Assembly (NCBI GenBank): GCA_044892505.1
Contig: CM097882.1
Location: 260,338,001-260,402,000, forward strand
Source: Schmidtea nova
Lineage: Eukaryota
Length of the DNA: 64,000 nucleotides
Reading direction: 5' to 3'
Shown here: positions 1,013-39,412 of the stretch, in pieces
How positions within the stretch are numbered: the first letter of the stretch is position 1
How the letters are laid out: each line of letters opens with the position of its first letter
Made by a program: the position numbers and the translations under genes
The notes under the pieces: generated by a model
What the model was told of the DNA's origin: nothing
Seen by the model: the letters and a program-made list of their open reading frames with translations, nothing else
Databases searched by the model: none

Positions 1013-1549
1013 ATGACTACCGAGCAGAGGCAAAGGAATTCCTAAAGAGTCAAGGCTCTCGAAAGTCGGTTAAGGCAGTTGGATGCCGAGTACCAGTTGA
1101 TAAAGACGACTTGGTTCCACCCGGAGCGAGTAAAGAGCATCCAACAAGCCAGGTATCGTGCTGAATGAACGGCGGAAGAGCAGGCGCGAGAGACAGCAGC
1201 TGTCAAATTAGAGTTGGGCAATTACTTGCGGGCGTCTACCAAGGAGTTCACTGAGCAACAATTACGACCGCTCATACGAACCAGTACCTTCGATCGATGG
1301 GTACAGTCTACTAGCGTCTCGATGGGCGTGCAGACTGATATGAATTTAAGTCCGAGTTCAGACACCCCAGAAAGTGCTCAGAAAGCAGAAAGATTTAAGC
1401 GTACTAAACGAAGGAATCGGTTAGGCGCTAAAAGGCGGCGAGAAAGAAAGGAATATGCAGAACGGATCGGAATAGAAGTAGATCTTCTGAGCGGATTAAC
1501 CGAGAAGCAACTTCTGGCCGTCATCGACCCTACTGTGTTGTTAAATTGA
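1013..1549 (+). pseudogene. ORF B family (coiled-coil N-half, basic C-tail), internal TAA and TGA
   Basis: TTWFHPERVK...VKLELGNYLRASTKEFTEQQLRPLIRTSTFDRW matches the ORF B motif in 3469, 5499 and 39164; AATAAA at the stop. Confidence 0.75.
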
Positions 1550-2522
1550 ATAAATGTATTGTAGTTAAAATGTATCTTTACGAATGAATGTGGAACGAAT
1601 AATGATTTAACTAAAGGAAGGGGTGAGTATATTCAATTCATTTAAATGCCAAATGGACATGAGAAATCTAAATCAACCCTAGACTTAACTAATTTAAATA
1701 AATGTGAGGGACCGGAATAAAACCACACAAACCTTCTATCGGTAGTGGTGAACCCGTGAATAAATAAGGGAATAGTAACAGCAAGGTTGCTCACCTGCCT
1801 TATCATTTCACAACGTTGATACAGTTCCAACATGATGAGTAGTTAGGGATACATCATGGGTATCAGTGGGGGAAAGCGTTTATGTTGGCGAGGTTACCCT
1901 AACCAATAAAATCAAGTATAACCTCTGTTGTATATCTAACCTACAAACCAGCAGTAATAATAACAATAATAATATAATTTTCGCTTAATTATTTTTTTTT
2001 ACTTAATGTATTTTTCTAATTAAAGAAAATTATGTTTTCAATTAAAATATTTCTTTATTTGTTTTGGCATTTTAATGCCTTTTTTTAATGCCCGTCTATT
2101 TCATTTATTTATTAGGCCATTAAGTGCTTATTTATTTTCTTAATTGGCAGTTTAATGCCTTTCAATTGACAGTTAACTGCCTTTAATTTATGGAGAAAAT
2201 TTTCCCATTTAAAGGGAATTCCAAGTAATTTTTCTATTTTTTTAACTTTACTTTTAAAATTTAATTTGTAGAATTCGGTGATTTATTAAACTTTATTTTT
2301 GAAAATTAATTTATAGAATTCGATGATTTATTGAAGGATTTTTAAAACATTATTTAGATTTATGATGTTAAAGGTAATAATTTTAATTATATTAAATTTG
2401 AATAAATAATTTTTATGGTGATAATGCATATAATACTTGTAAGAATTAAAAACTAAAACTAACACTCTCGATTATCAATGATTTGAGCGAATACTAGAAT
2501 AAGGAAATTTGAGGGACCCTGT

Positions 2523-3023
2523 TTGTATGTTATATCTAGTATTATTTTCGTATTTTTAGTAACAAGCATGTTCCACACTGGATTACAATTTCGGGGTACC
2601 AGAGGAGAGTCGGCCACCTACAATATATCTATTGCAAATCTGGACGTTTACAATAATTATTTGGTTATGCATATGCCGCTCAAAAATATCCCAACGGAGC
2701 TGGCCCGTGAAATCCTCCATGAGCACCGAGAGGAATTCGAGAAAATCGGCGCTGTCCCTCCTTTTAATTTATTCTGAGACAGCCCGGCAGACATCATATG
2801 GCATGCAGCAAGGAGTGGCCGATCGACGTGGATCACCACTTCTGGCCTAATGCAACAAAATCCCACTGAAATTCCAGGGAGGTTCCAAATATATTATAAA
2901 GGCAAAATTCCCCAGGCAGAATTTCTGGGCCCGGGACGATTCGTGTTCGCTCCCGCGCCAACACCAAGCCCTACCGACTCTCCATTCAGCCCCTCGACGT
3001 TGAGTGAATCAGAAGAAAACTAG
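2523..3023 (+). pseudogene. ORF A family, one internal TGA at a conserved Trp position
   Basis: Frame continues past the stop at 2775-2777: PLKNIPTELAREI...PPFNLF*DSPADIIW...FQIYYKGKIPQAEF aligns with 27887 SLKELPPPILRTI...CPFSIWDTGRDRVLY...SRVIYWGHIPQGDL. Confidence 0.7.
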
Positions 3024-3468
3024 TGATGTGGAAATTATTGAGAACTAATTTTCGATTTGTTTTGTTTGTGTAGTTCGTTAAATTTTATGTTTAGTTGTTA
3101 TTTCATTGTTGTTGATAAATTAAGTGTTTAGTGTAGATATGTAAGATAATTACAGTAATTGGTAATTCACTATAAACACGAATGAATAACTTGGTAAAAC
3201 AATAAATAACAAAGATAGTAATCTAAAATAGGTATGAATAAACTTAGTTTTTGTAAAATAATAAATAAAGGAAAAAGTAGACTATACTAAACAGGCACAG
3301 GTTAGACGGGTCTGCCAAAGAAAGGCCGTGGAAGGTGATTGATAAAAAGTAGAGTAGTTTATACGAACCGAGTTGGAGTTGTGTAAGATTATCCGTATTA
3401 CTGTTAGATAGAATCATATAGTTAGAATTTTCTTTCATTACAAAGAAAGCTAGGGCTATAAACGAAAA

Positions 3469-3879
3469 ATGTCAGGACAGCTGAGGAGGAGGATTATCGA
3501 CATCGAGAATAGTTATTTTTCTCCTGCCGAGATGAAACAAGTAAATGACCGATTGCTGAGAGCGACACAAGTGATCCAATATCAGAAGAGAGAAATAGAC
3601 GCATTAAAAATCGAATTGAAAAATTGCCAATCGATCATAACTGAAAGATTTATAGATGGGATTCTGCGGGATTTGATTCGCCCAATAACGCTAGAAAAAT
3701 GGTTCTCCACACCGGACAAATCGGAAAATGCAGTCATAGAGGCGACGACGACAGCCCAGCCGCCAAAACGGAAGAGAAGAAAATCCCATTCGCAACGACG
3801 TCACCAAATGAAGCTGAAGTTGGAAACCGAAGCGAATAAAGTAACTATCGGGATGGACATCAACCGATCGAATCCGTGA
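3469..3879 (+). CDS. ORF B family protein, 136 aa, open
   Basis: SYFSPAEMK...LKIELKNCQSIITERFIDGILRDLIRPITLEKWF, basic tail PPKRKRRK. Confidence 0.65.
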   Translation: MSGQLRRRIIDIENSYFSPAEMKQVNDRLLRATQVIQYQKREIDALKIELKNCQSIITERFIDGILRDLIRPITLEKWFSTPDKSENAVIEATTTAQPPKRKRRKSHSQRRHQMKLKLETEANKVTIGMDINRSNP

Positions 3880-4501
3880 AAGTCTCAGATATCTTGTGTA
3901 TTAAAATTGTAATGTAATAAGGACGAATATATGTATAGTAATTCCGCGTTGTTTTCTTGAATAAGGTTCTCTGATAACTAAATAAACAATAACTATAGTT
4001 GTACATGACTAAAATGTAGGGAATAAAAGCCAATAAATGCTAAAAAGAGATCTACCAAAATGTAAACTTGCGATTTAGTGCAGAGAAGGGTTGAAATTAG
4101 AAACGGCCAGCGAACACCCGAAAGAGTGACCGGTGATGGGTGAGTGATAGTGTTGGGCCCACCAAGTGGTCTAAAACCAACAAAATAACAGTACAATTAA
4201 AACAACAAATGAAAATAATAAATACAAAAAACATAGAAAAATCGGAATTAAAAATCGGAATAAAATAATAAATAATAATAAATAAATTAACAGCAAAGAG
4301 AAAATTCGAAATTTACATTAGAACAAGCAGCGAGGGAGCCTGAAACAGAAAAATAAAGAATTTTATACAAGTAAAAGTGCAATTAATTGATTAATTACTT
4401 TGAAAATCAGGACCACCCAGCGAGAAACCTGAACCGGAAATAAAATAATATTTACAATAAAATAAAATAATAGACAGGTTTTGATGGACGGCCTGATCCT
4501 G

Positions 4502-4539
4502 ATTGGTCAATCTGACCAGCCAGATCAGTATAAATACCG
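4502..4539 (+). promoter_or_regulatory. CCAAT (ATTGG) plus TATA box TATAAATACCG inside E3
   Basis: Same TATAAATACCG at 46862 and 54824, TAAATACCGATC at 26723, and ATTGG...TATATAAG at 35972-36005, each upstream of family coding segments. Confidence 0.55.
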
Positions 4540-5025
4540 ATCCGAAAATCATAATTAGAGAAAATATTTTTGAGACTTAGACTTTGCTTAGAGCCTTAGT
4601 TTAAGCCTTTCTGTGAAAACATTTTACAGCATTTCGAGCGAAAATTCCGAACATTTATTTTGCGAGCAGAACATTAACTTAACGAATTGGAACAGTAAAT
4701 TTTATTTTGATTGATTAATTTATGTACCCATGATTTTATCATTATAATCTTATTCTATGTTTTGATTTTATCTTTATGCATTTAATTTATTTTAACTCAT
4801 GTGTATAGTTATGCTTCCTCGACTGTTCACGCGGCGAGGGAGCCAAAGTCGACGTCGTGGAGCCTAACGGTTTCACACGGCGGTTTCACCTTTTTATAAT
4901 TTTGTCACATTTCGATATTTAGGATGATTGCAATTTATGAATTTTATGATTATAGTTTTCAAATTTTGGTTGCACCTAGGATGAATCGGCACAAGTAGAG
5001 GGTATTATTATTATTAGGAAATACC

Positions 5026-5360
5026 ATGCGTCAGGAGGCATCCCGAAGGTCTAAGGTACCTTCCACCCAACATATTTTCGGCCATGCGAATTATTATTCC
5101 AAGGGACGAATAAGTTTATCAGTAAAGGGTCAAAAAATTTCACGATACGACAATGCGTCCAGGAGTCCCACACAACTAATACACTGGGACACATCCCCCG
5201 AAGCGAATTCAATAAATTGGGGCTTCGCTCATTTCTGCGCTCACGATCTTTCGGAAAGGAATATGGAATCGATCACCCAAAGTTCTCGCTGGAAAGACTA
5301 CGCCAATTAGCCATAAACAAGGAACTTCATATAAATTTTAAAAATATGAACGTTAAATAG
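5026..5360 (+). pseudogene. ORF A family, frameshifted
   Basis: GLRYLPPNIFSAMR (shifted frame) and TQLIHWDTSPEANSINW correspond to ORF A motifs LKxxP and (F/I)xWD. Confidence 0.5.
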
Positions 5361-5498
5361 TCGAATTGAATTTCCTTGATCATAATAAATTCTGTTAAAT
5401 GCGATTCATTTATTTTGTTTATTTTCCTCATGTTGCACAATAATTCATTTTAAATCGTGACTAAAATAAAGAATTTCAATTCATTAAAAATTTGCAGA

Positions 5499-6092
5499 AT
5501 GGATTCCGCATCACCACAGCAGAAAGAAATCGATAAATTATGGAGGATTCGAAGGGCTCAGGACAAAGAACTGGCCCAAACAAAAGTACAGTTGGCAAAA
5601 GCGGAGGCACAATTAGCTCATCTGCGTAAGAGTTGGTTTGCTCCTGTGCGGATGAAAGACCAGATAACTAAAACCGAGCGGGCTCAGAAAACAGCGGAAG
5701 ACTATAAAATGGAGTGGGAGGCAACTAAGATAGAGTTGCGGAAATGTCTCCACTCAGTGACGGCCTCGTATATAGAACGGGAACTAAGAGCGCAAATCAG
5801 ATCGGTGGCCTATCAGGGGTGGATCACCGAGGAAAAATCAGTGAGCTCAATCGGCACGGATGTCGAAGGCCTAATCGAGACTACTGTAGAAAACCCACAA
5901 CCAGTTACTGTGAGTGCTCCCTCAATCAGCGCATACCAAAAACGCAAGCGAATCGGCCAGAAGCTCAGAAGGCAGAGGAAACTCTTCGCCCAAAGATTAC
6001 AAGATCAGGTCGACAAGTTAGCCAATTTATCGGAAGCAGAACTGTTAGCCGAGATCTTTCCTCCAGAGGGGAATTTCGCCCACATGTTATGA
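5499..6092 (+). CDS. ORF B family protein, 197 aa, intact
   Basis: ATG at 5499 preceded by TTTGCAG. KSWFAPVRMK...TKIELRKCLHSVTASYIERELRAQIRSVAYQGW; basic tail QKRKRIGQKLRRQRK; AATAAA just downstream. Confidence 0.75.
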   Translation: MDSASPQQKEIDKLWRIRRAQDKELAQTKVQLAKAEAQLAHLRKSWFAPVRMKDQITKTERAQKTAEDYKMEWEATKIELRKCLHSVTASYIERELRAQIRSVAYQGWITEEKSVSSIGTDVEGLIETTVENPQPVTVSAPSISAYQKRKRIGQKLRRQRKLFAQRLQDQVDKLANLSEAELLAEIFPPEGNFAHML

Positions 6093-7276
6093 CAATAAAA
6101 TAGGCTATCATCCGTGTTGACATCTTTGTTATTTCTTAGTGTAAAGTTTTATTAATAATTAAAATAACTGAAACGTAATAATTGTACCCGACATAGGTTT
6201 TAAAGGCCACATAATTAATTCATAAAAAATGCTAACATTCGTAAATAGGTAAATAGAGTACAACATAGCTTTGTGAAAATAAACGATAAGTGCTGTAAAA
6301 TATAACAATAAATCTTTTGTGAAAGAGGCGTAAGTCCTTCTAACGGCAGCAATGGACCCGTAAACATAAATGAGGAGTAGTTCTAGCAATAGAGCTCACC
6401 TGCCCATCATTGTTTAACTCACCTAGCGCATCACCAACTTGGTTATCAAGGGAAATAATCGAGGGCGCTCGAGTGAGCAGAGTAAATATTTATGTATGAT
6501 CATGGATGGGGAATCCCTAGTCATCAGTAGCATTTTTTTAATCTAACCCCTCCGTGAACCCAGTAATAGTATGAATGAGACCTTCTATCGATTAAGCTAG
6601 AACCCGAACGATGCGACAAGTCAGGAGTAGTTCTTGTGAAGGAACTCACCTGCTGACTTGCGATCGGCTGTTATGCACATTAACAACGTGAATGAGTAGG
6701 GTAAATCACGGGTGCATGAACAGTAAAGCTTTTATGTGTGTGTTGGACCCTAGAGAGCAAGGAAGTGTATTTTAGTAATAGAAATTTCAGTGAGTTTAAA
6801 GAGTCAGGAAGTAAATTTGGGTTTTGATTTTGATTTTTCCACAACACACCAACAATATATTTAAAAATAATTATTTTTTGTTTTAGTTTTAATTAGTTAT
6901 TATTTAGTTATTTTTTTGTAATTATCATTATTACCATTATTACTTACATTATTACTATTATTTTTATTATTTCTAGAAGATTTAGTTTGCATTCAACATG
7001 AATGGTGGTGCTCCAAGGTAAAATACATTAATTTCAAGTTTATTTAGAAATGTAACCTAATATTTTAGTTTATTATAATAATACACATTGATATGTTTTT
7101 GACTGAGGATTTTTGGTAATAATTAATTTACACACATTTTATGATTTTAGACGTTTCTGGAAATTTTCTTTTCTGTTTCTACCGACATTTGCGAAAATTT
7201 TCCCAATTTCGTCATTGGTTTTAAACGAATTGGTCTATCACTCTAATTAGCTATTCACATTGGTAATAATATATAG

Positions 7277-8682: not shown

Positions 8683-8894
8683 AATTACTAGAGATATTTG
8701 TATTTTATAATATAATTAGGTTTACATGACTATTTTTAATAAAAAAACTGTTATTATTTTATCAAATTTAGTTTTTTATTATTGCATTTTATAATTAAAT
8801 TTTATAATTTTATTTTATAATTATTATATTTTATTATAATATTTTTATTATTTTTCCCATTACTGATACAAGACCAATACTATCTGGTTCTCGC

Positions 8895-8924
8895 AGCCTG
8901 TCGCTGGCTGTCATTGAAATACTT
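8895..8924 (-). pseudogene. Hsp70 micro-fragment (YFNDSQRQA)
   Basis: [13 protein letters not shown] matches the canonical Hsp70 [18 protein letters not shown] motif. Confidence 0.65.
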
Positions 8925-9141
8925 TGGAACTGTAAATGCACGATATTGTTGGCTTCCTCGACTTGTTAATGGAGTGAATCCTAGCATAAAGAAATGCAAA
9001 CATGGAAATGGAACCATGTTAAAAGCTAATTCTCTCAAATCAGCATTCAATTGACCAGGGAATCTCAAGCATGTTGTTACTCCACTCATTGTAGCGCTTA
9101 CCGAATGATTCAAATCCCCGTAAGTTAGAGTTGTCAATTTC
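8925..9141 (-). pseudogene. TUBB: Beta-tubulin internal fragment (~72 codons, no introns)
   Basis: [72 protein letters not shown]. Confidence 0.95.
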
Positions 9142-9440
9142 ATTACATCTATTCTCGCTTGTGTAAATTTCTCTAATTCAATCAGACATTTGATTCGTCG
9201 GAGTTTGGTTTCTTTCATCGCAATCGGGACTATATTGGATTGCTGAATCGCAATCCATGGGTGCATCGGAATATTTACCAAGTTTCATTAATGAAAAGGC
9301 ACGATTTGAATAACATAACGACATTAATAGCGGGAATTTACTCCTATTCATATTCAAAGATTCAGTATATCTATCGAATGCACCACAATAATCTCGTTTT
9401 TACGAGTTCATTTCCAATTTTATGAAGACCGACAATTGTT
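9142..9440 (-). pseudogene. TPR-repeat protein fragment (co-chaperone type), frameshifted
   Basis: GNELVK/DYCGAFDRYTESL...[50 protein letters not shown] reads as three consecutive TPR units. Confidence 0.7.
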
Positions 9441-12046: not shown

Positions 12047-13106
12047 TACTATTATTTATTTTGATTTTATATAATGCGAATTAATATTTAATTTTTCATA
12101 ATACCAATTAAACTAGCTTCGCTATTTAATTATCAATCAATGATGAGATCACTCGGACTTTTGGTTCCTATTGTTCTGATCATTCATATAATTATTAGAA
12201 TGAAAATGAAAGAGACCCTCATTACTGAATAAACATATACTATTCCAATCATAGCATCCTATGTCATTTACAGATCTCATAGAATCGAATTCTTAGCTAA
12301 ACTTTGAGCCAAGACTCTTGCTTGCGGTATGAATGCGGTGAACACAAAGATTGGCAGAGTTAAGAAACTCTGTCCATGGCAAATATTGTGTTTTCGGCAA
12401 TATATCGAAGATAGTTTAGTGATAATGAGTCCAAATTTATTCCGTACTCCGTTGTTTTGTTAAGTAATATGTATTTTGTCAAGATTGAATTCGTGGAATG
12501 CTTTGATAAATTCATTGCTTTGGATTTATGCGAATATTGTTTATGAACCCATGAGTATTGATGATTTCTGATAACAGGAAACACGGAAAATGATGGGATA
12601 TATTGTCGATGGCGTCACATCTATTAGCCCTACGTTGGTTAAACTCGAGAAGAACATGGAGAATTGTAATCTATATATCATCCTGGTCCGTGAATACATT
12701 GTCAATATGTTATATACTGAATGAATCTATTTTAAACATTTTCTTTTGATATTACATATATATTTGTTGAATAACCGTTTTATAGGAAACATACTACGAT
12801 TGGGATCAAGCAAACTGGTTTTATGATTGCATTGCCATCCAAATAAATACGCTAGAATTAAAAACAGTTGTTTTCTAGACTCACAGTTGAAGAGGCCATC
12901 TCAGTGATAAATAAGAGACTTTTCCATTTCGAAGAGAACAATAAGAAATTGATGACAAAAAACCATGTGTTAGAACGATGATTGGAGAAGTTTGACAAAA
13001 GTTGTAGTTATGAAATGTGCCAATATTATAATAATAATATTGTTTTAATATTAACAATTAAAAAAACAGTTGAGCGTTGTTTTTAAATATAAATATAATT
13101 TGTATT

Positions 13107-14315
13107 ATGAGTGAACAGACTTTTACTGGCGACCACGCAAAAGTGGAAACAATTCAAGCAGTTACAAGACAACAACGGAAACTCATCTTAGAGTCACTTC
13201 CGAAACAAGCACGAGATATCCTGAATTTTAATGTCAGGAAATTCAATGGAAGAAATACAGCAGAAGCAGAACTGTGGATGAAAGATATCGAAGATTGGCT
13301 TATGATGAACGAGTTGAGTCTAGTAAGCATTTTTGATTTATTATTGTCAGAAGAAGCTGGTATATTATGAAAGGATTATAAAATTCCAAATATTACCGAT
13401 AAAGAGGCAAAAGAATGGTTCAGTGACACATTCACAAAGAAAAAGTCGATCACTGATAGAATATGTGATTTAGCAAGAGTTGAACAAGAAAAAAATGAAA
13501 GATTTGCAACTTTTGAAATTAGAGTAAAAAAATTACTTGATGATATCTTCGATTGTGGATTATCCAGAGAAGAAATTGTGAGAAATATTGTTACCAATAG
13601 GGTCCACAATGAACGTTTAAAGGAGAATTTTGTTTCTAATGCCAAAATGTCAAGAGAAGAAATGCGAACATTAGCAAAGGTATTTGAATCAAACGATATC
13701 ACGGAAAGAAACGTGCGTATTGAAGAAATTCAAGCAGTGGATAGAAGGTCATATGCAAATGCGGTTCGAGAACGAAATACTCAGTGGGAGCATAAAAACA
13801 AACCAAAAGCAATAGTTCAAAATAACAGAGTATTTGAACCAAACCATCAGCGCAATATAACATATCAAGATAAACAATTTAATAGTAGTAAACCTATATC
13901 AGAAGATCAGAGAGACAGAAAAACGAATGAATATGAAGAAAGAAGACAATTACCAACCGTATCGATGAAGCATACTGCAAGGAGACTTTATAATAGATGT
14001 TGTGGATTGCCAGAGCCGAAAGAAGAGAAGTTGAAACCAGGCCAGTGTTTCTGTTGCGGGGAGAGCAATCATTTACGATTTCAGTGTCCTTTGAAAGATA
14101 GATGCTTGATTTGTGGCAAAACCGGACACACGTTTAGAGACTGCAATGTGATTAAGAAGAATTTCGAAAGGAAACAACACCAAGTATATTGTATACACGA
14201 TGAAGAACAAGATGATTCAGAAATAATTAATGAACCCCTTTTACATGATGTAGAGTATCAAAAAAACCAACGCGACCCTGTCGTACACATTTCGTCGGTG
14301 GGGTCGAGTCAATAG
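13107..14315 (+). CDS. gag: G1 gag (one premature TGA at 13368; two CCHC zinc knuckles)
   Basis: CFCCGESNHLRFQC and CLICGKTGHTFRDC. The G2 paralog has TGG at the stop position. Confidence 0.85.
14261..14306 (+). promoter_or_regulatory. -1 ribosomal frameshift signal (A AAA AAC plus hairpin)
   Basis: Heptamer is in gag phase; stem CGACCC(14273-78)/GGGTCG(14301-06) is extendable by G-U pairs; the -1 frame is open into pol. Confidence 0.75.
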
Positions 14316-14341
14316 GACAATCAAGAAATCGAAATGGAGTT

Positions 14342-17300
14342 ATGAAGGATGTGATGTATATGAAGGAAGATGGTAGGAATTGGAGTAGAATTATTCTAAA
14401 TGAAGTAGAACTTGATATGTTGTGGGATTCTGGTGCGTCAATTAGCGTAATAAGTGAAGATTATTGGAAACGTATTGGTTGTCCACCATTGATAAGTAGC
14501 AAAATAGTTTTGAGTGGTGTATTTTCGAAAGAAAATGAAATGCCATTAGGAAGTATAAAGGTTAATGCGAAATGGAACAAAAAGTCTAAAAATCTTGATA
14601 TTGTTGTTGTGAAGAAGATATGTCCAGATTTCATAGGCGGTGTTGACACCATGAAGCAGTTCGGTCTAGAATTGAAAGAGGTAAATAATATTGAAGCTTC
14701 GTTAACAAAATTAACATTCACAAATGAAGAGAGAAGAGATAAGGCTCTACAATATATTAAATGCGGGAATAATTCATCACTAGGTAATATTATTTCAGAC
14801 TTTAGTGATATTTTCATGGCATCGCGATTCGATCTTGGACATACACGTTTAATAGAACACGAAATAAAAACAACAGGACCACCGATATTACAGAATCCAC
14901 GCAGACAACCAATGCACTTAGAAACGAAAATTGACGAATTAGTATCAAACTTATTGGAAGCAGGCGTTATTAGAAGATGCCAGAGTCCTTGGAATTCACC
15001 TTTAGTGATTGTTGGAAAGAAGGATGGTTCGATCCGCATGTGTTTGGATTTTCGAAGATTGAATTCAGTAACGGAAAAATTTTCGTTTCCAATGCCCGAT
15101 ATGCAGTTATTACTGGATTGTTTAAGTAAATCAAAGATATTTACAGCAATTGATCTAGGACAAGCGTACTACCAAGTCGAATTGCAGAAGGATTCACAAA
15201 ATAAGACGGCGTTTAGTACTAAGGAAGGACAATTCTGTTTTAATCGTCTACCATTTGGGTTATCGACGGCACCAGCAACTTTTCAAAGATTAATGCATAA
15301 AATACTGGAAGGGCTTATTTTCAAAGGAGTTGTTGTATATCTGGATGATATACTAGTTTACGCAGAAAATCAAAGTGATCACGATAAACTGTTGTTGGAG
15401 GTATTTACACGGATAAGAAACACAGGCTTGAGAATTAACCCGGAAAAGTGCTCGTTCAATAAGGCGGAAATCAACTTTATTGGCCATACCGTCAGTGGTG
15501 AAGGTGTTCAGACAAATAAAACAAAAATAAGCGAAATTGAAAATGCTGCAGTACCAGAATGTGTATCACAACTCAGGGCGTTTTTAGGACTCACAAACTA
15601 TTACCGTCGATTTATAAAAAATTATGCAAAGATTGCAGCACCGTTATACGCAGCAACATCAGGTGGTGAAAAGAAAGTTATATGGTCAGAAGAATGTAAC
15701 ATTAGTTTTAATAACTTAAAGAAGGCGTTATGTGAAGCACCGATTTTAGAATTTCCGAGATCAGATCGAAAGTTTATCATTGATACAGATGCAAGTTTCG
15801 GAGCTGTAGGAGCAGTATTAAGCCAGATTAATGAAGAAGGCAGGGAAGTCGTCATAGCATACGCATCAAGACATCTGACGACTCACGAAATGGGTTATTG
15901 TGTAACAAGAAAAGAATTATTAGCACTCCATGAGTTCATTGTATATTTCAAACAGTATTTATATGGTAAAGAATTCGTCGCAAGAACCGATCACAAAGCT
16001 TTAACGTTCATGAAAAACACAAAGAAACCAATTAGCCCTCAATTTCAAACTTGGATGGCTAATTTATCGGAGTATAATTTCGAGTTACAGTACAGAAAAG
16101 GAGAAGATCATGGAAATGCTGATGGCTTATCTAGAATAAAAAATAACTTGTGCAGTCAATGCCAAACGAAACATAATGACGCAAAAGAAAAAAAATCGAA
16201 GATAAGATATATAAATAGTTTACAAGAAAATCCAAATATTTTAGAAATTATCAGAGTTAAGCAAATGGAAGACGCAAATTTAAGAGAACTTATAAAATAT
16301 TTGAAAGATGAGATTGGTCAGGTTCCAAACTTTGTGGAACAAAGTTATTTTTTCAAACATATAAAAGAACTGCAGATAAACGAAGGTTTGTTATCAATTG
16401 AAATATCTAACAAAATAGTTGTTATAGTTCCAGAGAATTACACGGAAACTTTGGTTAATTTTATGCATAAAGAATTATGTCATTTAGGTAGCAAGAAAAC
16501 GGGAAGTTATATGAAAGATTTTTTTTATTGGCCTAATATGAATCAGGATATCAAAGAGATTATCAATAAATGCCAAATTTGTGCCAAGAGGAAAATAGAA
16601 CAAGGAAGAACAAAGGAGATTTTATTACCAAGAACAGGGGAACGATTCCTTCAGCAGCTCGTTGTTGACGTTGCGTATATGGAAAAGACGAAAGGGAATA
16701 AAAAATATGTGATTGTAATTATAGATAGATTTAGTAAACTTGTGAGTTTAACGGCAACTTCAAAACAAGACGAAAACACAATCGTTAATGTAATTTTGAA
16801 TAACTGGATATACCGATATGGAAAGCCAGAAAGCATACTGACAGATAGAGGTCGGGTTTTTGAAGGAACAATAATTCGAGAATGGATGAACAAGTTTGGG
16901 ATAAAGCAAGAGTTTAGTTCACCTTACCAACATCAATCTAATGGTTTGGCAGAACGTACTATAAGAACAGTTAGAGATATGATGAGTACATCTTTGAAAG
17001 GAGAACGTAAAGAAAATAATTGGGCCGAGATATTACCGAGAATTGAATTTTGTCTCAATGCGACGAAACAAAGTACAACAAATTTCTCATCTTTTGAAAT
17101 AGTCTACGGTAGGAAAATTAATTTGTTTTCTAGTCCAGGATATGTACAGCAAATGAAAGATGAGGTACTACATACGACAAAATCAAATTTAGATAAAGCC
17201 GCTACTTCTATGCAAGAAAGAGACATAAACAAACGAGGAACAAGGCTTTTCAAGGTGGGAGAGAGAGTATTAGTAAGAATTGAGCCAAACAAACGGAAAA

Positions 17301-17429
17301 AAATGGCGAACAGTACGAAGGACCTTTTGAAATTTTAAAATTCTTGTCACCAAGACAAGTAGCACTACAATTCCAAAACTCAGTAAAGACGAGACGAATC
17401 GAATGGTTGAAGAGATGGAAATCAAATTG
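14342..17429 (+). CDS. pol: G1 pol (PR-RT-RNaseH-IN)
   Basis: LWDSGASIS, YLDDIL, DTDAS, HKELCH...CQIC, TDRG, SNGLAER. A 1-nt loss in an A-run near 17295 shifts the GPF tail (QYEGPFEIL...IEWLKRWKSN*). Confidence 0.95.
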
Positions 17430-18661
17430 AAGAGGGGAAAGTTATGAAATGTGCCAATATTATAATAATAATATTGTTTTAATATTAACAATTAAAAAAA
17501 CAGTTGAGCGTTGTTTTTAAATATAAATATAATTTGTATTATGAGTGAACAGACTTTTACTGTTGTCATTCAATAGAGGCAGTGCGGTTTTGTTAGAATA
17601 ATATGACGAAACCATATAACCAAATTCAACTGCTCATGAAACAGAGTGAAAATGACTCAATCAAACGGGTGCATTGCAACTCACAATCCGGGAAATGGAT
17701 AGTGAGATTGACCAGCTGAGGATATAAAATTGGCTTACAGCAGATATATGCCATCTCAACTCCACGCAATTGTCAGAATTATTTCTCAAAGAGAAGAAGT
17801 ACATACTACAACAATGACAAAGAGGTAAAAGCTCGACAAGACAGAGCAAGTGCGCAATAAACACCGACTCCTTGGTCATTTAAAATTAATCTTATATTAC
17901 TAATTTTTGTTTTCTTGCGCATGTCTGACAACTAAGTGAATGATGATATATTGAATGTAATAATAGGTTAAATTTTAATTTGTTTTATTTTATTAGATAT
18001 TTCTAATTTTTATTATTACAATCTTATTTAAAAATAATCTTAAGTAATGAATTAATAGTAAATAGTGTTACAATAATTAAATAATTAGAATCATGAGATA
18101 AGCGAGGTTTTCCGAAAGATTAAAATTAACCATTAAAAGAGATAACGATATTAGTAGTTCGAATAAGAATAAATATACGAGTAAATGAGTGTATATTGTT
18201 AACAGAAATTTATATATTTTTTTATAGAAATGGAAAGAGCTCGGGCAAATAAATGACAAACTAACAAGATTTGAGGCAAATAACGAAAGACTGAAAATTT
18301 TGAATTCTATTGTATTTCTTTTTTTAATGTTTATTTTTGTTTATTTTAATGTTCTCGTGCGTACTCGTTATTAAACTAATAAATATTCTATTAATTTCAT
18401 TATCTTGGTTAATATCGAAATTAAATTTAGAATTTTTAGATTTTACTCATGGGTTTTGAGCCAGAGTATTTGACATGTATTATTTAAATAAATTCTCAAG
18501 GAATGTAAAGTTCCTATAATTAGAAGAAGAAACAATGGAACCAAAAGAATGAATGGACCTGCATTTCTCTTGGCGGCCCTTGAACCCATTGCGATATTTT
18601 GTCAATTATAGTTCTGGAAAGCGCGTTCACTTTGCAAGTATCTACCCTTTTGTTACATTAA

Positions 18662-20901: not shown

Positions 20902-23900
20902 TCCATATAATAATTACGCTCATCACTGATTCACTGACTGATTCTATAACGCTCGCTGATTGGTTGATTCTAACACTATGATATCTTTTTGATATCTTTA
21001 TGATATCTTTTTATCTTTACTCTCATTATCTCATTATCTATTATCAATACATTTTTCATAAATGTATGGGTAGGTTTAATTTTTTACTTCATTGTTTATT
21101 TTTTTAGATTTTCAGTTTTTTGAAGATGTCATCAGCATCATTTGTTAGATGCACGACGAAGAATTCTCGAATCCATATCATTATCAATTTTTTAAAAATA
21201 TTTTCCAACATGGTTATGAGCATATTTTCTTTATAATTGGGTATATTTGTGATTAGATCTGCATTGTTTTCCAAATCCAGTTAAATTAAATATAATTTTT
21301 ATTCGAAACCTCTTATATTGTGCCTAAAATTTTATGTATTTCTAACATATTCGTTGTTTTTTACAAATTTGTTTGAATGGTATTATTTGAATAGTTTGAA
21401 TGATTGTGTATCAGAATTTAATTTTATCTATTTTATCTGTATCAATCGTTACTAAATAAAATATGTCTTTTACAGTTGTCACAAATATGGATGAAACTCC
21501 TGCTTCCAGGAAGCGTCGTTTGGCAAATGAAAGACAGAAGAGATGGCTTGCAAATCAAAGCCAGGAATCACGTGCAAAAATTCGTTCTTTAGATAACATG
21601 GCTCATCAAGAACGCATTGCTCAAATGACACCTGAAAATCTAGCGGTTTTTCATGCCTCTCATGCTGATTCTCAACAACGATACATAGAAGGAATGTCTT
21701 CCCAACAATTAATTGCTCATCGAGCCGTTCACGCTGAATCTCAACAGCAATATGTCGACAGATTAACGCCTCAACAGTTGCAAGATCTTCGCACTTCCAA
21801 CTTGGCTTCTCAACAACATCGCATTGCACAAATGTCAGCAGAGCAATTGATTGCTCACCGTGTCGCTCATGCTGAATCTCAACGACGATACATAGAAGGA
21901 ATGTCTTCCCAACAATTAATTGCTCATCGAGCCGTTCACGCTGAGTCTCAACAGCAATATGTCGACAGATTAACGCCTCAACAATTGCAAGATCTTCGCA
22001 CTTCCAACTTGGCTTCTCAACAACATCGCATTGCACAAATGTCATCAGAGCAATTGATTGCTCACCGTGCCACTCATGCTGAATCACAGCAACAATATAT
22101 TGAAAGACTTACACCTCAACAATTAGAAGCGCAAAGAGAAGCTAATATTGCTTCACATCAATTGGCTCATGAACGGCAAATTCAGGCGATTCGCAACGAA
22201 GCAATTAATTTTGTAGAAGCTCGCGTTGATGAACATAGTTGTGGACTGCTAAATCATGTCTGTAAATTTTGTGATGCAAAACATTTCAAAGATGAGCGTC
22301 CATCTGATGGAAATTTTACGTCGTGTTGCCGAAAAGGAAAAATAAAACTGCCAAAACCAACGAGCGTAGACGGAGATATATTAGAGTATCCTTCATTTCT
22401 ACAAAGCATGCTATCAGATCCAGACAATCCGCAGTATAGTCATTTCCGAGATCAGATTCGTTCATACAATAATTCGTTGTCATTCGCGTCAATGGGTGCC
22501 AAAATTGTCGATTTACCGGGTCGTGGTCCGTACGTTTTTAAGATCAATGGTCAAACGCATCACAAAACATCACACATACAACCGATAAATAATGAAACTC
22601 CTCAATATGCCCAACTTTACGTCCTCGATTCAACGCAAGCAACAGATATTCGTCAAAATCATCCTGCTAATGATCAGTGCCGTCGAGAATTGATCGTTTT
22701 TTTCGAGAAAATAATAGAATCGCGACAAGTTATATGCTTATGCATGAGATCGAAGCAAGAGAAACCGAAGAAGCAGCTCAATCAGGACTACAAATTCCAG
22801 TCGTCAGCATGGCGTTGCGTCGTGATAGACAATCGGATCAGCGTCGATATAACGCACCAACATCCAATGAAATCGCAATGATTTTTGTAAATGAAGATGG
22901 CGAGCCGCCGTTCGAGCGTGACATTCACATTTATCCAAAAAATCCGCAAGATCCAAATCACTACTTTATCAATCTCCACATTCTTTCACCAAATATGGAT
23001 CCGATGACCTACTCAATTCTTTTTCCTTATGGAGAGCCAGGCTGGCAACCAAATTGGCAATGCGATTCATACGAAGGTGCTCAATTGAATAGAGTTCGCA
23101 CTAACATTAGCATGTTGCAATTCAAATGTGCCTTAACGTCGATTCGCGATAGTCAATTTAATCCTATCATCAACGCTGGAAAATTGACACAACAATGGTT
23201 GGTTGATTCATATCTGCAAGTAGAGGCCAACAATTTGAATTATATTAAACAGAAACAACAACGTCTTCGAGCTGAACAATATTCTGGACTTTCAGATCAT
23301 ATGGCTAATTTAGCACAAGAATCGAATCTAGCACCTGGTGTTTCAGTCATTCTTCCTTCGAGCTTTGAAGGATCACCGCAAAACATGCGTGAGCGATGTT
23401 GCGATTCCATGTCAATTTTTTCAAAATGGGGTGCTTCGGATTTATTCATCACATTTACTCCAAATCCGAAATACAAAGAAATTACCGAAAATTTGCGTCG
23501 TGGTGAACAAGTGAGTGACAGACCTGATTTGGTTGCACGAGCTTTCAAAATCAAACTTGATTCATTGATTGATGATTTGACAAAGAATGGTATTTTCGGA
23601 AAGTCAATTGCTTATGTTTATTCGATTGAATTTCAAAAGCGTGGTCTACCACATGCTCATATTCTGATTACACTTGCGGCAGAGCATAAATTTACAACAG
23701 CTCAAAGGATTGACGAAATTGTCTCTGCCGAAATACCATCACAAGAAAGCAATCCACGTCTGAGAGAAATCGTGTTGCGATGCATGATGCACGGCCCGTG
23801 TGGCCCAAGATTTCCAAACGCGCCATGCATGTCTGATGGAAAATGTTCGAAAAACTTTCCAAAACAATTCAATGACTCTACATCTCCAAATGTTAATGGC

Positions 23901-26246
23901 TATCCATCCTACCGACGTCGATCAACTGAGCAAGCAGAAGTCAGAGGTGTACAAATGGACAGTCGAAATGTTGTGCCTTACAACCCATATTTAGCACTTA
24001 AGTACAACGCCCACATAAACGTCGAAGTCTGCACATCTCTTCGCGCCATCAAATATATGTATACATATTCAAGGGATTCGACTGCGCTAATGTTGCCATA
24101 ACATCGAATGGAGAGCCAGAATTGAGATACAATGAGATCACTAATTTTATAAACTGTCGATATGTGAGTGCACCAGAAGCAATTTGGCGTTTACGAGAAT
24201 ACCCCATGCACGATCGATCTCACAGTGTGATGAGACTTCCAGTCCATTTACCGAATCAGCAAAGAGTCATGTTTCAAGAAGGACATGAAGAAGAAGCATT
24301 ATTAAGAGCACAAACAGGATCAACTAAGTTTCAATCGTGGTTCAAACTCAATGAAAATGACATGAATGCTCGACAATATCTATACACTGAAATCCCTCAT
24401 CACTACGTATTTTCAAAGGGAAATTGGCAAGTACGCAAGCGAGCCGGTGAAAAAGTTGTCGCAAGAATGTATACAGTTGGAGTGAAGGATGAAGAGCGTT
24501 TCTATTTGAGAATTTTATTGCTACACGTACGTGGTGCTACGAGTTTTGAATCGTTGAGAACAGTAGATGGCGTTGTTCAAGATTCTTTCAAAAGTGCAGC
24601 TGCAGCGAGAGGCTTGCTTGAATCTGATGATGAATGGAATAACTGTTTAATAGATGGCGCCATATATTTAATGCCTAAACAATTAAGAGAAATGTTCGCA
24701 TATATTTGTTGTTTTTGTCAGCCTTCTCGACCTCTCACGTTATGGCAAAATCACGTTGCTGATTTCATACTTGACTACTTGAGAAATGATCCAGAAGATG
24801 TCGCGATCAACAAAGCTCTTCATGACATTAACTCAATTCTTAAGCAGCATGGATTATCGTGTGGAAGTATTGGCTTGCCAATACCAACAGGACACGCTCA
24901 TGTCAACGATGATCAGACATTTGACATTTTGGAAGAGGATCAAGATGCTGAAGAACGAATGTCAAAACTTAATGAGAAACAATTCGATGCATTTAATCAA
25001 ATCATAAGAACAATTCACAGTCCAAATTTAAGAACTCGATGTTTTTATGTTGATGGTCCAGGTGGCTCTGGCAAAACATATCTTTATGAGACACTTTTAG
25101 CATGCCTTCGAGGTCGAGGAGAAATCGCATTAGCATTTGCCACAACTGGAATTGCATCAACATTACTCAAGGGTGGAAGGACAGTTCATAGTGGCTTCAA
25201 ATTGCCTGTGCCATTGCTTGATACGTCTGTCTCATCTATGCGACTGAATTCACCTGAAGCTGAAAATTTCAGAAACGCCTCTCTTATTTTGATTGATGAG
25301 ATCACAACGTTTATGAAAAATGGATTACGTTGCATCGACAAGCTACTGAAAGAAATAATGAACAACAAAGCGAGTTTTGGTGGCAAAACAATTGTTGTAG
25401 GTGGAGATTTTCGACAGACGCTTCCAGTCGTTTCCCGAGGCATACGTACAGATATTATTGAATGCTGTATTAAATCGAGTCCATTATGGAATGATTTTGA
25501 ACAACTTACTCTATCGACAAACATGCGAAGTGAAGGTCAAAATGAGCATAACGATTGAGCATAACTGTTGAATTTTTAAATGAGCAAACTCCATCAGGCA
25601 TGCCTCCTCATGTATTATTGCTAAAGAAAGGTGTCGTTATCATGCTGCTGAGAAATTTAAACCCCAAAAAAGGACTGTGCAACGGAACTCGATTGATTGT
25701 GGAAGATCCAGGACGAAATTTAATTAGAGCAAGAATCATTTCCACATGCAATCGCAATGATATTGTTTTAATTCCTAGAATTGATCTCGCTCCAGCTGAC
25801 ACAACATTACCATTCATATTAAAACGCCGCCAATTCCCGATAATTCCCGCGTACGCTATAACAATAAACAAGGCACAGGGCCAGTCATTCGATCATGTTG
25901 GCATTCATTTGGAGACTGCAGTATTTTCGCACGGTCAATTGTATGTGGCTTTATCACGATCAAGAGTTGCAAGCCAAGTGAAAGTGTTCATTGAATCAAA
26001 TCCACGGCAAGGAAATTTATTGAATGACGAGAGACAATTCACACGCAATGTAGTTTTTCAAGAAGTTCTTCAATAAAAACAATTTTTTTGTCAATTTTTT
26101 TTTCATTCCATATATATAACAGAAATAATTTTCAAATTGCTTAAGAATACAAGAAATTGAATTTTTAATAAATATTTAGTATGTCAAACTGTTCATTTAT
26201 TTTATGATTTGTCAACGGGCGCCTTAGGCGCCTTGCAATTAACTAG
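20902..26246 (+). mobile_element. Full-length Helitron (RepHel disrupted)
   Basis: A|TC 5' end, 3' hairpin GGCGCCTTAGGCGCC and CTAG|T end; no TSD. Confidence 0.93.
21463..26076 (+). pseudogene. Helitron Rep/PIF1-like helicase, two frameshifts plus an internal deletion near 25555
   Basis: FITFT, EFQKRGLPHAHIL, GPGGSGKT, GGDFRQ, TINKAQGQS, GQLYVALSR. Confidence 0.93.
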
Positions 26247-27886: not shown

Positions 27887-28366
27887 TTGTCTAAAACAGA
27901 TGGAAAAGATGTCAATCGAAACATTCGTAGCATCTCAAAGGAGGGCGCCACTTCAATCGAATTCTCGACAACAAAAGCCATCAAAAGTCTAAAGGAACTA
28001 CCACCTCCGATTTTACGAACCATTAATGCTCAGATGTATAAGTGGAGACGAGCCTTCCGAGAAAAATGTCCATTCTCCATCTGGGATACCGGACGAGACC
28101 GGGTGTTGTACCAAGGGGGCCCGGGATGTCCAAATTCGGCCAATCAATGCTACTCGCCGAAATTTGGACGTATGATCGTAATAAATAATGGCCCCGATCA
28201 GAAACCTTCAAGAGTGATTTATTGGGGGCACATCCCACAGGGCGACCTCGCCGATTTAGGGCTAAACCTTTTCACGTCGCCACGTTCTCTTGGGAAAGGT
28301 CATGAGAAACACATGCCCGATTTCTCTCTGACGAGGATCCGACAAGCACCGACAAGCACCGATTAA
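27887..28366 (+). CDS. ORF A family protein (>=159 aa open)
   Basis: Carries all three ORF A motifs (LKELP, FSIWD, HIPQGDL); family promoter motif at 26723. Confidence 0.6.
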   Translation: MSKTDGKDVNRNIRSISKEGATSIEFSTTKAIKSLKELPPPILRTINAQMYKWRRAFREKCPFSIWDTGRDRVLYQGGPGCPNSANQCYSPKFGRMIVINNGPDQKPSRVIYWGHIPQGDLADLGLNLFTSPRSLGKGHEKHMPDFSLTRIRQAPTSTD

Positions 28367-33834: not shown

Positions 33835-34073
33835 GAATGAATAAAAGATTTGAAAGTGGCGCTTGAAAAAGCAAAAAGATGCTTCAATAATTAGAGATAA
33901 AGAAGCTAGCATCGATAACTACTTAAATGCATGTTCCAACTAGTGCCGTGTTTTTTGCTTTGTTTGTAAACTTTTTCCAAACACTGCATCTTATGCAACA
34001 GCATTAACTTCTGAAGAGTTTAATGATTGGAAAAACCCAGCTATCATTCAATCTCATGAAAATTCGGAAAATC
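33835..34073 (+). mobile_element. hAT N-terminal TTF-type zinc-finger remnant
   Basis: MNKRFESGA*KSKK and FNDWKNPAIIQSHENSENH; ends at the 34078 element terminus. Confidence 0.55.
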
Positions 34074-34077
34074 ATAG

Positions 34078-35700: not shown

Positions 35701-35739
35701 TGTTTTGTTGTCTCGGATTTTTAGCAAATTTTAATTTAA

Positions 35740-37700
35740 TGTTGGCCAGGGGAAAATTTTTCTCCTTTGATAGCGTAACTATGGGAAATTGATAATATTG
35801 TAAACAAAGGTGAATTATATAAATCTCCAAGTTGATTGATCCGGCGGTTGGACTTCCGCTACAGGGAAATTTTTACTTCGTTAGTTAATGTGAAACTCGT
35901 TTTACTCTTTTCGATCAAGATTTTCTAATATACTGAGTGATGCGAAAATTTCTGACTGACTGAAAATTTTGATTGGCTGAGACAGCCACGAAAAAAGTAT
36001 ATAAGTAGACACTAAATTCAATGTTAAAAAGGTCATTTTTACCTTAAGGCATTGTACTTAGCAATTTTGTTGAAATTTGTGAATTGAATCTTGTACTTCA
36101 AATCGAACGAAGAAAATAAAGGTATCAGTTGTTGTTATTATGTGTTGTTAATTATAAATTTGATTAACCCCTCATGGTATTGTTGTTTAAAAATCAATAA
36201 GGACATGTCCCGACGATCTTGCGATCTGATGGGCGATAATTGGCCTCCCGACCCGACACTCTCTGAAGTGTTAGGCAGTGCGGCGTACTAGCGCTAAATA
36301 CGGCAGGGGTAAGGGATTGCACATAGGATAAACAAGAATGATTTCCGAGAACAATAAATTCAGTATTTTCACTTAGGATGTTAAAGGACCGACTGAGTAG
36401 TACTAGTATTTGATAAGTTAAAAGATGTTTTTATTCTACAGAGTATAGTGGACCCAATTTGTGACGACAAATAAGGGACACTAACATAATGATCCAGTGT
36501 AAGGAAAGTGAGGCACATTTGAAGTCGTTCACTTGCATCAAGTTATTACTGAGATTACAAAAGGGAATACCATCGAAGGATATTCAAATATGCGGACAAT
36601 AAGTCCGAATTATAAAACCATCGACACGTCGTTGAACAATCATTTTTCTATGGAGCGACAACCGACCACGTGCAGTGAGGTAGTGCAATAGTATCGTCGA
36701 ACAACAGCAGCTCAAAAATTTAAGATGAGGTAGGAAATTTGCGGTAGGAAATTTAAGGTCGTTCTCCAAGTAATAATTAATACCGTCTTTTTCCGAAAAC
36801 AAGACACTGTCTTATTTTCTTTTTTAGTCCAAAATACGCAGTAGGTCTTATTTTCGGGGGAAAGACAAAATATAAGTATAAGCTGGCGACCGGATCCAAC
36901 TCTGCATTTTTTCTCATTTCCTTGGTCCACCAGTTGACACAAGTAATTGTAGTCTGCACGCCATTTACGAACCATACGAAGATCCAGCATCTTCTCTTTA
37001 CAGAATGCTACAAGATTTTTACCTTGTGAGTCTTCCACAATTTCTTTTTTGTACTCGAGAGAATAGCCTTTTTGTTTTGTACTCATTTTAATTGGGATTA
37101 AAAATTATTTGCTAAAGTAAATAAAATCTATATGAGGAATTAATCAGAATTGCAGAGCCAAAATTAATAAAAATAGTATGCCTCATTTTTGCTCAATGTA
37201 TATTGCTGCTTTATGCTGTATTTTATAGAAAATTTTCAAGAATTTATTTTAAACGAACTGCAGCTGTAAATAATTAATTTCTTTAAATATTTTGTCTTAA
37301 ACTTAATTTAAATATGAGTATTGGTAAACCTTGACATATAATTTCTTATAATAGATTAATAGATTTATAATAATAGATTTATAATAGATTTATAATAGAT
37401 TAATAGCTTAAATAGCTTAATAATAGCTTAATTTTCTAACAAATTCTTTCAGTAACGTTAGTTAACTATGGCTTATTTTCGAGGGGATGTCTTATTTTAC
37501 AAAACGTTAAGAAAATTAAGCTAGGGCTTATTTTCAAAGGAGGTCTTATTTTCAGAAAAAGACGGTAGATTGTCGACCGTCAAACGATTGAACGAACATT
37601 CCCCGTGAAGAGATTTCATCAGCATAGCATGATATTCACATCAACACCGTGAGAGAGGGACTCGCCATATGTTTTTGCCATCCATCTAAAATATTGAGAC
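35740..37700 (+). mobile_element. Unclassified TG...CA element copy (left end, promoter, degenerate ORF A split by a MITE)
   Basis: TGTTGGCC start; ATTGG/TATA at 35972-36005; ATG segment ending GG|GTAAG; LQKGIP...IFLWSD and IPREE/FHQHSMIFTSTP match ORF A motifs. Confidence 0.5.
36783..37565 (-). mobile_element. pogo-family internal-deletion element retaining the N-terminal DNA-binding domain
   Basis: 23-bp TIRs (21/23 match, CCGTCTTTTTC[CT]GAAAA[CT]AAGAC), TA TSD; MSTKQKGYSLEYKKEIV...VRKW...RVGSGR. Confidence 0.85.
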
Positions 37701-38089
37701 CAAGTAGTATGATGTAGAATGCACAAATAAATGAATGAGTAATTTCTAATAATTAACGACGATTGTATGTTGGAAAAATCGACGGCACTGAATAAAAGCA
37801 ACAATACAATCGTAAATCAATTTTTGCGCTCGATTGATGAGGCGGATTTAATTTCTAATCTACACAGCCGTGTCTTACCTCAACGGACAGTCTGTAGCGG
37901 AACAACGGGTGAGAAAGAAAATTGATCCGATTTTCCCATGTACTGAGATTTTCGTGCCATGCCAACAGCTGTCGACAGTCGACTTGTGAATAAAAATTCT
38001 AGAAATCATTTCTATAAAAGTCGTCATTAACAAACTCGTGTTTTAGAAAGAAGAATCCAATTCGAAAATCCTCGCTAGAAGACCGGATC

Positions 38090-38676
38090 ATGAATATCTA
38101 TAAAACTACTATGTGTACAAGTGAACTTGCACGTTACCAGGAAACCGAAGCCATACGTCCAACCGTTTATTATCAAAACGGAAGGATCAACCGACCAGGA
38201 ATCTGGGCTCTGAAGCACGCCCCTTCCGACGTTCTTTATGACATTCACCTCCAGGCGAAAAACGGAGAAATGAATTCAAAAGGAAAGCACATTTCGGAAT
38301 GTGGTAAAATCTCTATGAAGAGCTACATTTGAAGGAGGGCCTTTATGGCCTGAAACTCATAGTATTAATATGCCACGATGACAAAACAATACCACGCTGG
38401 ATCCTTTCTTTCTCTCGGATCCCAGCCAATGAATTTCACCAATTAGACTACATCCTCCTCGGTATGCCTAGGCGATTCTATGGCAGTGAACTGCAAGAGT
38501 TCTGCAATCTACCACTCCCAATGCCAGAAGATTGGCGCAATTCATCCGAGTGAGTCCAGAGCGTACAGATATGGGAGATTTTTCTGTACAGTTCACGACT
38601 CTGTTGGACCCCCAATCCAGACTTATACCAGACAAACGGGACCCTGAAACAGGAATCCGAAATATATCAGGAATGA
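38090..38676 (+). pseudogene. ORF A family, one frameshift and one stop
   Basis: Clear homolog of 176-742 (see that alignment); ALKHAP motif. Confidence 0.75.
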
Positions 38677-39163
38677 TCTCTTCAGAACCACAGTCCAGCG
38701 AGTCGAGATTAACAAGTCTACATCCTGTCGCCAAATCAAAACATGAATTACTTTACGATATTGTCCAAACTTTATATGTTCTATCCTGATATTTGATTTT
38801 TATTTTTAATTAAATACATTTGGTTTTAGTTTGTGTGCGGAATTTTGATTGATGTCTGAATGGAATTGTATGAATGAGGGAGGTCTGAGGGTGAAAGCGA
38901 CTTACCCGAAACATGTATGTCAGAACGATATGATGAGTGAAATTTCCGGCGGCGAAAGTTGGTATAAAGGCACATTGCCTGAATCGATATCAGATAATTA
39001 AGTTGTTCCCAGGAAGGAAAATAAGCTAAGGGGAAAGTAATGCGCCAGTAGCGTAAATGTTGCCACTTTAAAAGTGCTATGTAATTTCCAAAAATTTCCA
39101 AATAGATCATATTAAACAAACGATCGATTCAACTAACAAGCGAAACTACAGAGACACATCACA

Positions 39164-39412
39164 TTGTTAGAAGGGAAAATAAACAGGCAGGCGCTCGAAA
39201 TCGAGGAGTTAAGGCAAACGTGGTTTAGCCCGGCCGCAATGAAAGAGGTGCTAAAGAGTAAAGATAGAACGAAACGAGCCTTCGGCGAACAGACCGCGAA
39301 TTTGTCGGCCACTAAATTGGAATTATACCGCTGCCTGAGATCGATCTCAGACGACTTTATAACCAGATATCTGAAAGATCAATACGTTCGAACGTTGGAC
39401 GCCGTCACGTAA
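39164..39412 (+). pseudogene. ORF B family, C-terminally truncated
   Basis: QTWFSPAAMK...TKLELYRCLRSISDDFITRYLKDQ. Confidence 0.7.

Follow-up and report, generated by a model that had tools for sequence, protein, structure and literature searches.

The 64,000 nucleotides of Schmidtea nova DNA analysed here (contig CM097882.1, positions 260,338,001 to 260,402,000; hereafter the window) carry several copies of a small open reading frame (ORF), ORF B, each downstream of a second one, ORF A, and the locus raises the question of what kind of gene, if any, these frames represent. ORF B is almost certainly a conserved gene within the long terminal repeat (LTR) of giant Burro-type Gypsy retrotransposons. 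A search profile built from 35 open copies and scanned over the whole window finds exactly four ORF B matches, all on the plus strand (1019-1543, 3463-3897, 5499-6062 and 39137-39382; E = 1e-24 to 1e-72), and an ORF A homologue is matched upstream of every one (158-652, 2565-3026, 5184-5345 and 38362-38547). All four homologous copies that the original prediction had placed 3′ of ORF A are therefore recovered, and the two described as intact, at 3469 and 5499, are open. Two of its starts are corrected: the frame from 1013 is interrupted by stops (codons 11 and 52), the homologous start being ATG 994 in another frame, and the codon at 39164 is TTG, in a 91-codon open stretch that has no ATG and ends before the basic tail.

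The copies fall into four lineages with 25-32% pairwise ORF B protein identity between lineages, and a self-blastn of the window gives no DNA match between ORF B copies of different lineages. ORF A and ORF B both lie inside an LTR of ~3-3.6 kb with TG...CA ends and a 4-bp target-site duplication (TSD). Copies of the 5499 lineage (lineage 3) have ~3.1 kb in common and then diverge, and this common unit starts with TGTTGGG and ends with CCCAGCA. Nineteen LTR copies were examined; both ends were found in 16, and 12 of these have a matching 4-bp TSD (of the four without one, two are 3′ LTRs adjoining internal sequence). The three ORF B copies near the window start belong to solo or nested LTRs of three lineages and the fourth is a fragment. 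The features are as follows.

1..1953, plus strand: 3′ part of a solo LTR, lineage 1 (~3.2 kb, beginning 1,252 nt before the window; TSD GTAA)
158..742, plus strand: ORF A, lineage 1, interrupted by stops
994..1549, plus strand: ORF B, lineage 1, broken: the frame changes close to its 5′ end, and it contains an in-frame stop
1770..1798, plus strand: core of the conserved structured element, lineage 1, close to the LTR 3′ end
2515..4150, plus strand: left part of an LTR, lineage 2, interrupted by the lineage-3 LTR
2565..3026, plus strand: ORF A, lineage 2, broken
3469..3879, plus strand: ORF B, lineage 2, open, 136 aa
4151..6565, plus strand: solo LTR, lineage 3, nested in the lineage-2 LTR; ends TGTTGGG...CCCAGTA
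4499..4538, plus strand: CCAAT (ATTGG) and TATA promoter motif, ~350-380 nt into the lineage-3 LTR
5184..5345, plus strand: remnant of the 3′ part of ORF A, lineage 3 (profile match)
5491..5497, plus strand: candidate 3′ splice acceptor TTTGCAG, 1 nt 5′ of the ORF B ATG
5499..6092, plus strand: ORF B, lineage 3, intact, 197 aa
6094..6099, plus strand: AATAAA, directly 3′ of the lineage-3 ORF B stop
6330..6500, plus strand: conserved element showing compensatory base pairing, lineage 3, at the LTR 3′ end; a donor-like GTAAGT precedes it
6570..6854, plus strand: right part of the lineage-2 LTR, terminal sequence CACCAACA
27968..28363, plus strand: isolated ORF A fragment with no ORF B downstream and no LTR termini
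38362..38547, plus strand: ORF A remnant, lineage 4 (profile match)
39137..39412, plus strand: ORF B fragment, lineage 4, lacking an ATG start and 3′-truncated

The lineage-3 solo LTR is flanked by the TSD ATAG (4147-4150 and 6566-6569), and the corresponding empty site, joint 4147>6567, is present in contigs of public sequencing runs. It is ~630 nt shorter than its relatives, the missing part lying inside ORF A, and has a donor-like GTAAAT near 4695. The lineage-2 ORF B starts a few codons downstream of the start in most relatives; the promoter-bearing 5′ part of this LTR was not found, nor were LTR termini near the lineage-4 fragment. In lineage 1 an acceptor AG immediately precedes ATG 994 and AATAAA lies at 1549.

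ORF B is under strong purifying selection. Of 80 open copies 72 are distinct, and 64 were analysed after mis-called starts and lineage-4 rows were set aside. The pairwise ratio of non-synonymous to synonymous change (dN/dS) in the three lineages is 0.08-0.23 in frame versus 0.61-1.92 in the +1 and +2 sense frames, in sets preselected as open frames and with many distant pairs excluded as saturated. The antisense frame that shares third positions gives 0.15-0.36, the expected shadow. In the 89 pairs compared among 26 lineage-3 copies, the ratio is lowest in the basic block (0.04) and highest in the linker (0.24). ORF A gives 0.21-0.23.

The genome (1.25 Gb, three large contigs) was searched with the four window proteins, 150 matches being scored for each protein, out of 9,531, 8,105, 7,940 and 7,151 first-look candidates. 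Among the first 30 5′ LTRs defined by an adjoining primer-binding site (PBS), 19 have ORF B in sense within 1.5 kb and none in antisense, with one downstream control stretch also matching; a further LTR has a C-terminal fragment. The LTR 3′-end motif occurs 5,968 times in the genome. An ORF B match accompanies 21 of the first 30 such sites, one of them contributed by a neighbouring LTR, which leaves 20; 12 are intact, four of them near-identical. That about two-thirds of the sampled LTRs carry ORF B suggests thousands of copies, and the totals of ~4,000 carriers and ~2,000 intact copies are an extrapolation only, because the 30 sites all come from one chromosome end. Many genomic copies contain stops, which fits decay after insertion as expected for solo LTRs.

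These stops, and the fact that only 12 of the 20 ORF B-bearing LTRs in this unselected sample are intact, could be taken to mean that the frames are non-functional. Together with the alternative of an ordinary gene family of the host that has no link to the element, this explanation is largely refuted and we consider it very improbable: in-frame dN/dS is far below 1 in three lineages, which does not agree with neutral evolution, the location is strictly in LTRs, and the protein is conserved between lineages whose DNA no longer aligns.

The parent elements were traced via the internal sequence adjoining the LTRs. Five full-length elements (d, m, n, o and p) are ~25-29 kb long with ORF B in both LTRs. 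Both LTRs of young full-length elements carry ORF A and ORF B, and the LTR pairs are 97.7-99.9% identical: 97.7% in element d (TSD TTTA) and 99.9% in element m (3,572-bp LTRs). The 5′ LTR of element p is internally shortened. Pfam domains in the internal region include gag, CCHC, a fusion env, protease (PR), reverse transcriptase (RT), RNase H (RH), integrase (IN), ankyrin and RING, with TRAF/MATH in a related element; BIR and BCL2-like domains were not reported in the subset of frames scanned. The env is a mononegavirus-type fusion glycoprotein (PF24664, E = 4e-77 to 5e-50) between gag and pol. The PR-RT-RH-IN order is seen in the ORF B-carrying element p, and no RT was seen in the frames examined of elements m, n and o. 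The PBS after the 5′ LTR is complementary to the 3′ ends of genomic tRNA-Pro(TGG), and 643 exact LTR-PBS junctions occur in the genome; an earlier PBS search with a guessed short spacer had matched mostly chance flanks.

Burro elements of planarians are described as giant Gypsy elements with gag, env-like, pol and host-directed cargo (PMC6431247, accessible text), and the gag-env-pol order has been described for Platyhelminthes (PMC13524379, accessible text). With Burro and GYPSM1 of dugesiid planarians the elements share gag with CCHC knuckles, a fusion env before pol, PR-RT-RH-IN, ankyrin, TRAF/MATH, multi-kilobase LTRs and very high copy number; they differ in that the accessible published text names accessory ORFs and domains but none inside the LTR, and the elements here are ~25-29 kb (PMC6431247). 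The Burro-type assignment thus matches the published description, compared by domain content rather than with reference Burro sequences. Penelope/Terminon, Helitron and tandem-array readings of the locus were dropped in view of the LTR ends, the TSDs, the PBS and gag-pol. The literature searched gave no description of genes in Burro LTRs, which the principal Burro papers may nonetheless annotate. Burro elements are already known, and the LTR-embedded accessory gene cassette is a variant for which we found no description in the literature and which most likely encodes a trans-acting regulator.

Three further observations concern these elements. In element p, the 5′ LTR has a deletion that removes ORF A and keeps ORF B (L199:2516-4442 is listed alongside); such a deletion also occurs as a contig joint in one run. 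A tandem array of ~1.7-kb period is made of internal sequence of the giant element, from its 3′ coiled-coil region (G000:C2:344123185-344155782). A large tRNA-Pro(TGG) tandem array of 308-bp period extends from G000:C1:459609706, with 899 motif matches genome-wide.

How might ORF B be expressed? In seven of the nine LTRs examined, CCAAT and TATA motifs lie 340-405 nt into the LTR and are followed within 200 nt by a donor-like site. The acceptor TTTGCAG noted originally before ATG 5499 is found at 5491-5497, and a YAG ends ≤2 nt before the ORF B ATG in 26/26 lineage-3 and 11/12 lineage-1 copies (background 7%) and ≤15 nt before it in 16/19 lineage-2 copies (background 32%). AATAAA occurs within 45 nt past the stop in 34 of 57 copies (18/26 in lineage 3, 8/12 in lineage 1 and 8/19 in lineage 2; background 13%). 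The earlier claim that it follows all three full-length copies of the window is right for two, where it adjoins the stop (1549 and 6094), but the nearest to the 3469 copy is at 3981, ~100 nt off. Since both frames lie downstream of CCAAT and TATA, they would be in R or U5 and not in U3, which means that the R/U5 region spans several kilobases or that control of poly(A) addition is unusual. A short-R model, with AATAAA beside the leader donor, fits lineage 1 and does not fit lineage 2, and was abandoned. Four public runs of unknown kind contain no clean GT-AG joint into ORF B; they cover U3, introns and ORFs alike and are not evidence on expression. The proposal of a mobile-element accessory gene with its own splicing and polyadenylation is supported by purifying selection, the conserved acceptor and AATAAA signals and the linkage to the LTR, the LTR nature itself having gone unrecognised.

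All lineages aligned, LTRs lacking the ORFs included, retain a structured element at their 3′ end (in the window 1740-1900, 6330-6500 and 6590-6760). Two-sided changes are seen in 12 of 26 pairs, with a covariation of 0.46 versus 0.20 in shuffled alignments, from 17 sequences whose relatedness inflates the counts. Rfam has no match to it, the four weak matches in the window lying elsewhere. It is a candidate packaging, priming or response element, or another structured RNA.

The AlphaFold model of ORF B (mean predicted local distance difference test score, pLDDT, 77.5) has helices at 6-45, 49-96 and 143-175. The long helices are interrupted at the WFxP motif. After them come a linker modelled as disordered (114-139), then a basic helix and, at the C terminus, a further short one. 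Of the heptad-like N-half and basic tail first described, the tail is evident as an arginine-rich segment with 9 K/R in 17 residues; the N-half is helical as an AlphaFold prediction. ORF A is modelled as a small α/β domain (pLDDT 68; predicted template modelling score, pTM, 0.64), and in lineage 2 its C-terminal tail is Ser/Pro-rich and acidic.

The sequence and structure searches, suggested with the original prediction, give no credible homologue for either protein and none that points to a function; the regulator or RNP-factor role proposed originally is accordingly tentative. In Pfam neither ORF A nor ORF B reaches the threshold of any family; a word-indexed protein search limited to near lengths gave 0/5,074, 0/3,278 and 0/1,133 candidates, and metagenome contigs 0/261 matches. 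The ESM Atlas has nothing usable (best 0.84 for ORF B, none for ORF A). A HMMER scan of 1.84 billion representatives returned a single match, a repetitive Ser/Lys/Arg-rich protein of 2,652 aa, rejected as compositional because only the basic block matched. Nothing reached E ≤ 0.001 among PDB sequences (best 0.2 and 0.52) or in the ORF B fold search against the PDB (best 7.7). The best ORF A fold match has Z = 3.0 (root mean square deviation 4.7, 99 aligned), with none at E ≤ 0.001 among viral folds. Blank homology searches do not prove a new fold.

The function we tentatively favour, at somewhat short of an even chance, is that of an RNA-binding protein of the nucleus, translated from a short LTR transcript after splicing and acting in trans on element RNA. 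RNA polymerase II would start ~400 nt into any LTR, be it 5′, 3′ or solo; a short leader exon would be spliced onto the acceptor that precedes the ATG of ORF B, with the message ending past the ORF B stop. The long N-terminal helices would oligomerise, and the Arg/Lys helix would bind RNA and give nuclear import. The likeliest target would be the intron-retaining genomic RNA, possibly through the 3′ structured element of every LTR, and the bound RNA would escape splicing or early polyadenylation and be exported. This is the role of Rev and CERV, neither of which ORF B matches in sequence. That a Gypsy element can encode an export factor made by splicing has a precedent in CERV of Cer1; like HIV (human immunodeficiency virus) Rev it is a small LTR-element accessory with an acceptor before the ATG and a proposed role on unspliced RNA, but it is internally encoded, has 517 aa and a Cys finger, whereas ORF B lies wholly in the LTR and has no sequence match to it (PMC10309623, accessible text).

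Elements without the cassette bear on this. ORF B is absent from ten of the 30 LTRs defined by a PBS, and of the eight elements traced from these, five are gag-only and three carry RT; none has ORF A or ORF B anywhere in 20-30 kb. The LTR pairs are 99.6-100% identical in the seven with both LTRs in range. Elements lacking ORF A and ORF B have thus moved recently, and the cassette is dispensable in cis. Near-identical LTR pairs are found both in RT-bearing elements without the ORFs and in RT-less elements with them, which is what sharing in trans would predict, and the mix of RT-less, RT-bearing and gag-only young elements suggests mutual complementation. The young partial elements are m, n and o (L199-L207; RT-less, with the LTR ORFs) and 220, 225 and 226 (L272-L279; RT-bearing, without them); L262-L271 and L280-L281 are listed with the same set, which also holds gag-only elements.

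In a tree built from LTR 3′ ends, at least three changes on well-supported branches are needed to account for the LTRs without ORFs, which points to repeated loss of the cassette or recombination of U5 segments. These changes also speak for a rival reading in which ORF B is an optional accessory protein that modulates the host or associates with the particle and does not itself act on the nucleic acid of the element, and Burro elements do carry much host-directed cargo, apoptosis- and ubiquitin-related (PMC6431247, accessible text). We judge this improbable, given that the Arg/Lys block is the site of strongest constraint, that other cargo is internal and that the eight ORF-less elements have no internal ORF B copy.

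Several findings, in addition to the preselection and saturation of the dN/dS sets, weigh against ORF B as an RNA export regulator. Recent movement of cassette-less elements fits a dispensable factor equally well. The basic helices equally fit DNA binding or a plain nuclear localization signal. The pTM of the ORF B model is only 0.29, so that the tertiary fold is not resolved by the model, and lineage 2 lacks the C-terminal helix. A leucine-rich export-signal pattern 3′ of the basic block is not above shuffles (11/12 versus 10.3, 4/22 versus 7.9 and 3/26 versus 20.9); with this test negative, ORF B differs from CERV and Rev and was not assigned to their family.

ORF B, perhaps with ORF A, might instead be a Tas-like transcriptional trans-activator or anti-silencing factor on LTR DNA or chromatin, a close rival that we consider somewhat less likely, yet ahead of optional cargo. 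A dimer-type helix with a basic helix, as modelled, would suit DNA binding, the acidic Ser/Pro-rich tail of lineage-2 ORF A favours it, and the cassette sits directly under the LTR promoter. Against it, neither protein has a Pfam domain above threshold, and the ORF B basic block is C-terminal to the long helices, behind a disordered linker. In bZIP proteins the order is the reverse, with the basic region first and the zipper after it. The lineages also have the 3′ structured element in common, but their U3 sequences are very different. Planarian LTR elements are silenced by PIWI (PMC8532177, accessible text), and foamy-virus Tas/Bet are a precedent for a second small transcription unit. The foamy-virus tas/bel2 pair resembles the cassette in consisting of two small regulatory ORFs in tandem that have short transcripts of their own (predicted for ORF A and ORF B), and differs in its internal promoter within env, ORF A and ORF B being under the LTR TATA and duplicated with each LTR (PMC3798896, accessible text).

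Returning to ORF B as a regulator of element RNA, it is a candidate for RNA regulation in giant intron-bearing planarian elements. LTRs are usually taken as non-coding and solo LTRs as dead ends, which the selected genes found here contradict. Coding sequence in or beside a long LTR is also found in mouse mammary tumour virus (MMTV) sag, HIV nef and Ogre. Whereas the sag and nef genes are U3 genes, upstream of the LTR promoter, the two ORFs described here lie downstream of it; they are therefore kept whole on recombination to a solo LTR, and solo LTRs would be self-contained genes. In Ogre the extra ORFs are internal (PMC6431247, accessible text), unlike the pair described here. A wider proposal, possible but in our estimation less than probable, is that Burro-type LTRs are self-contained two-gene regulatory modules in which every solo LTR is a complete transcription unit, giving some two thousand intact copies of a nuclear regulator that would support a consortium of partial elements in trans; host expression at the scale of gene families may follow. 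Burro1 has been reported to support stem-cell survival and regeneration (cited in the accessible text of PMC13465017), and a Burro-type regulator in thousands of copies therefore matters to planarian biology and gene annotation.

The remainder of the window contains other elements. Two small ordinary Gypsy elements lie at 13006-17562 (identical 123-bp LTRs, a 998-aa pol frame) and 40533-44923 (110-bp LTRs), and a Helitron Rep-helicase in several broken frames at 21463-26076. ATPase-like and polymerase-like fragments resembling a Polinton (49631-51843; by eye, no Pfam match) flank an ORF with a TBP domain (50362-50796; Pfam E = 1.5e-12). On the minus strand are a beta-tubulin-like fragment fused to an Hsp70-like motif (8880-9266; by eye, no Pfam match at 1e-5) and a 427-aa frame for an Ulp1/SENP-type protease (61051-62334).

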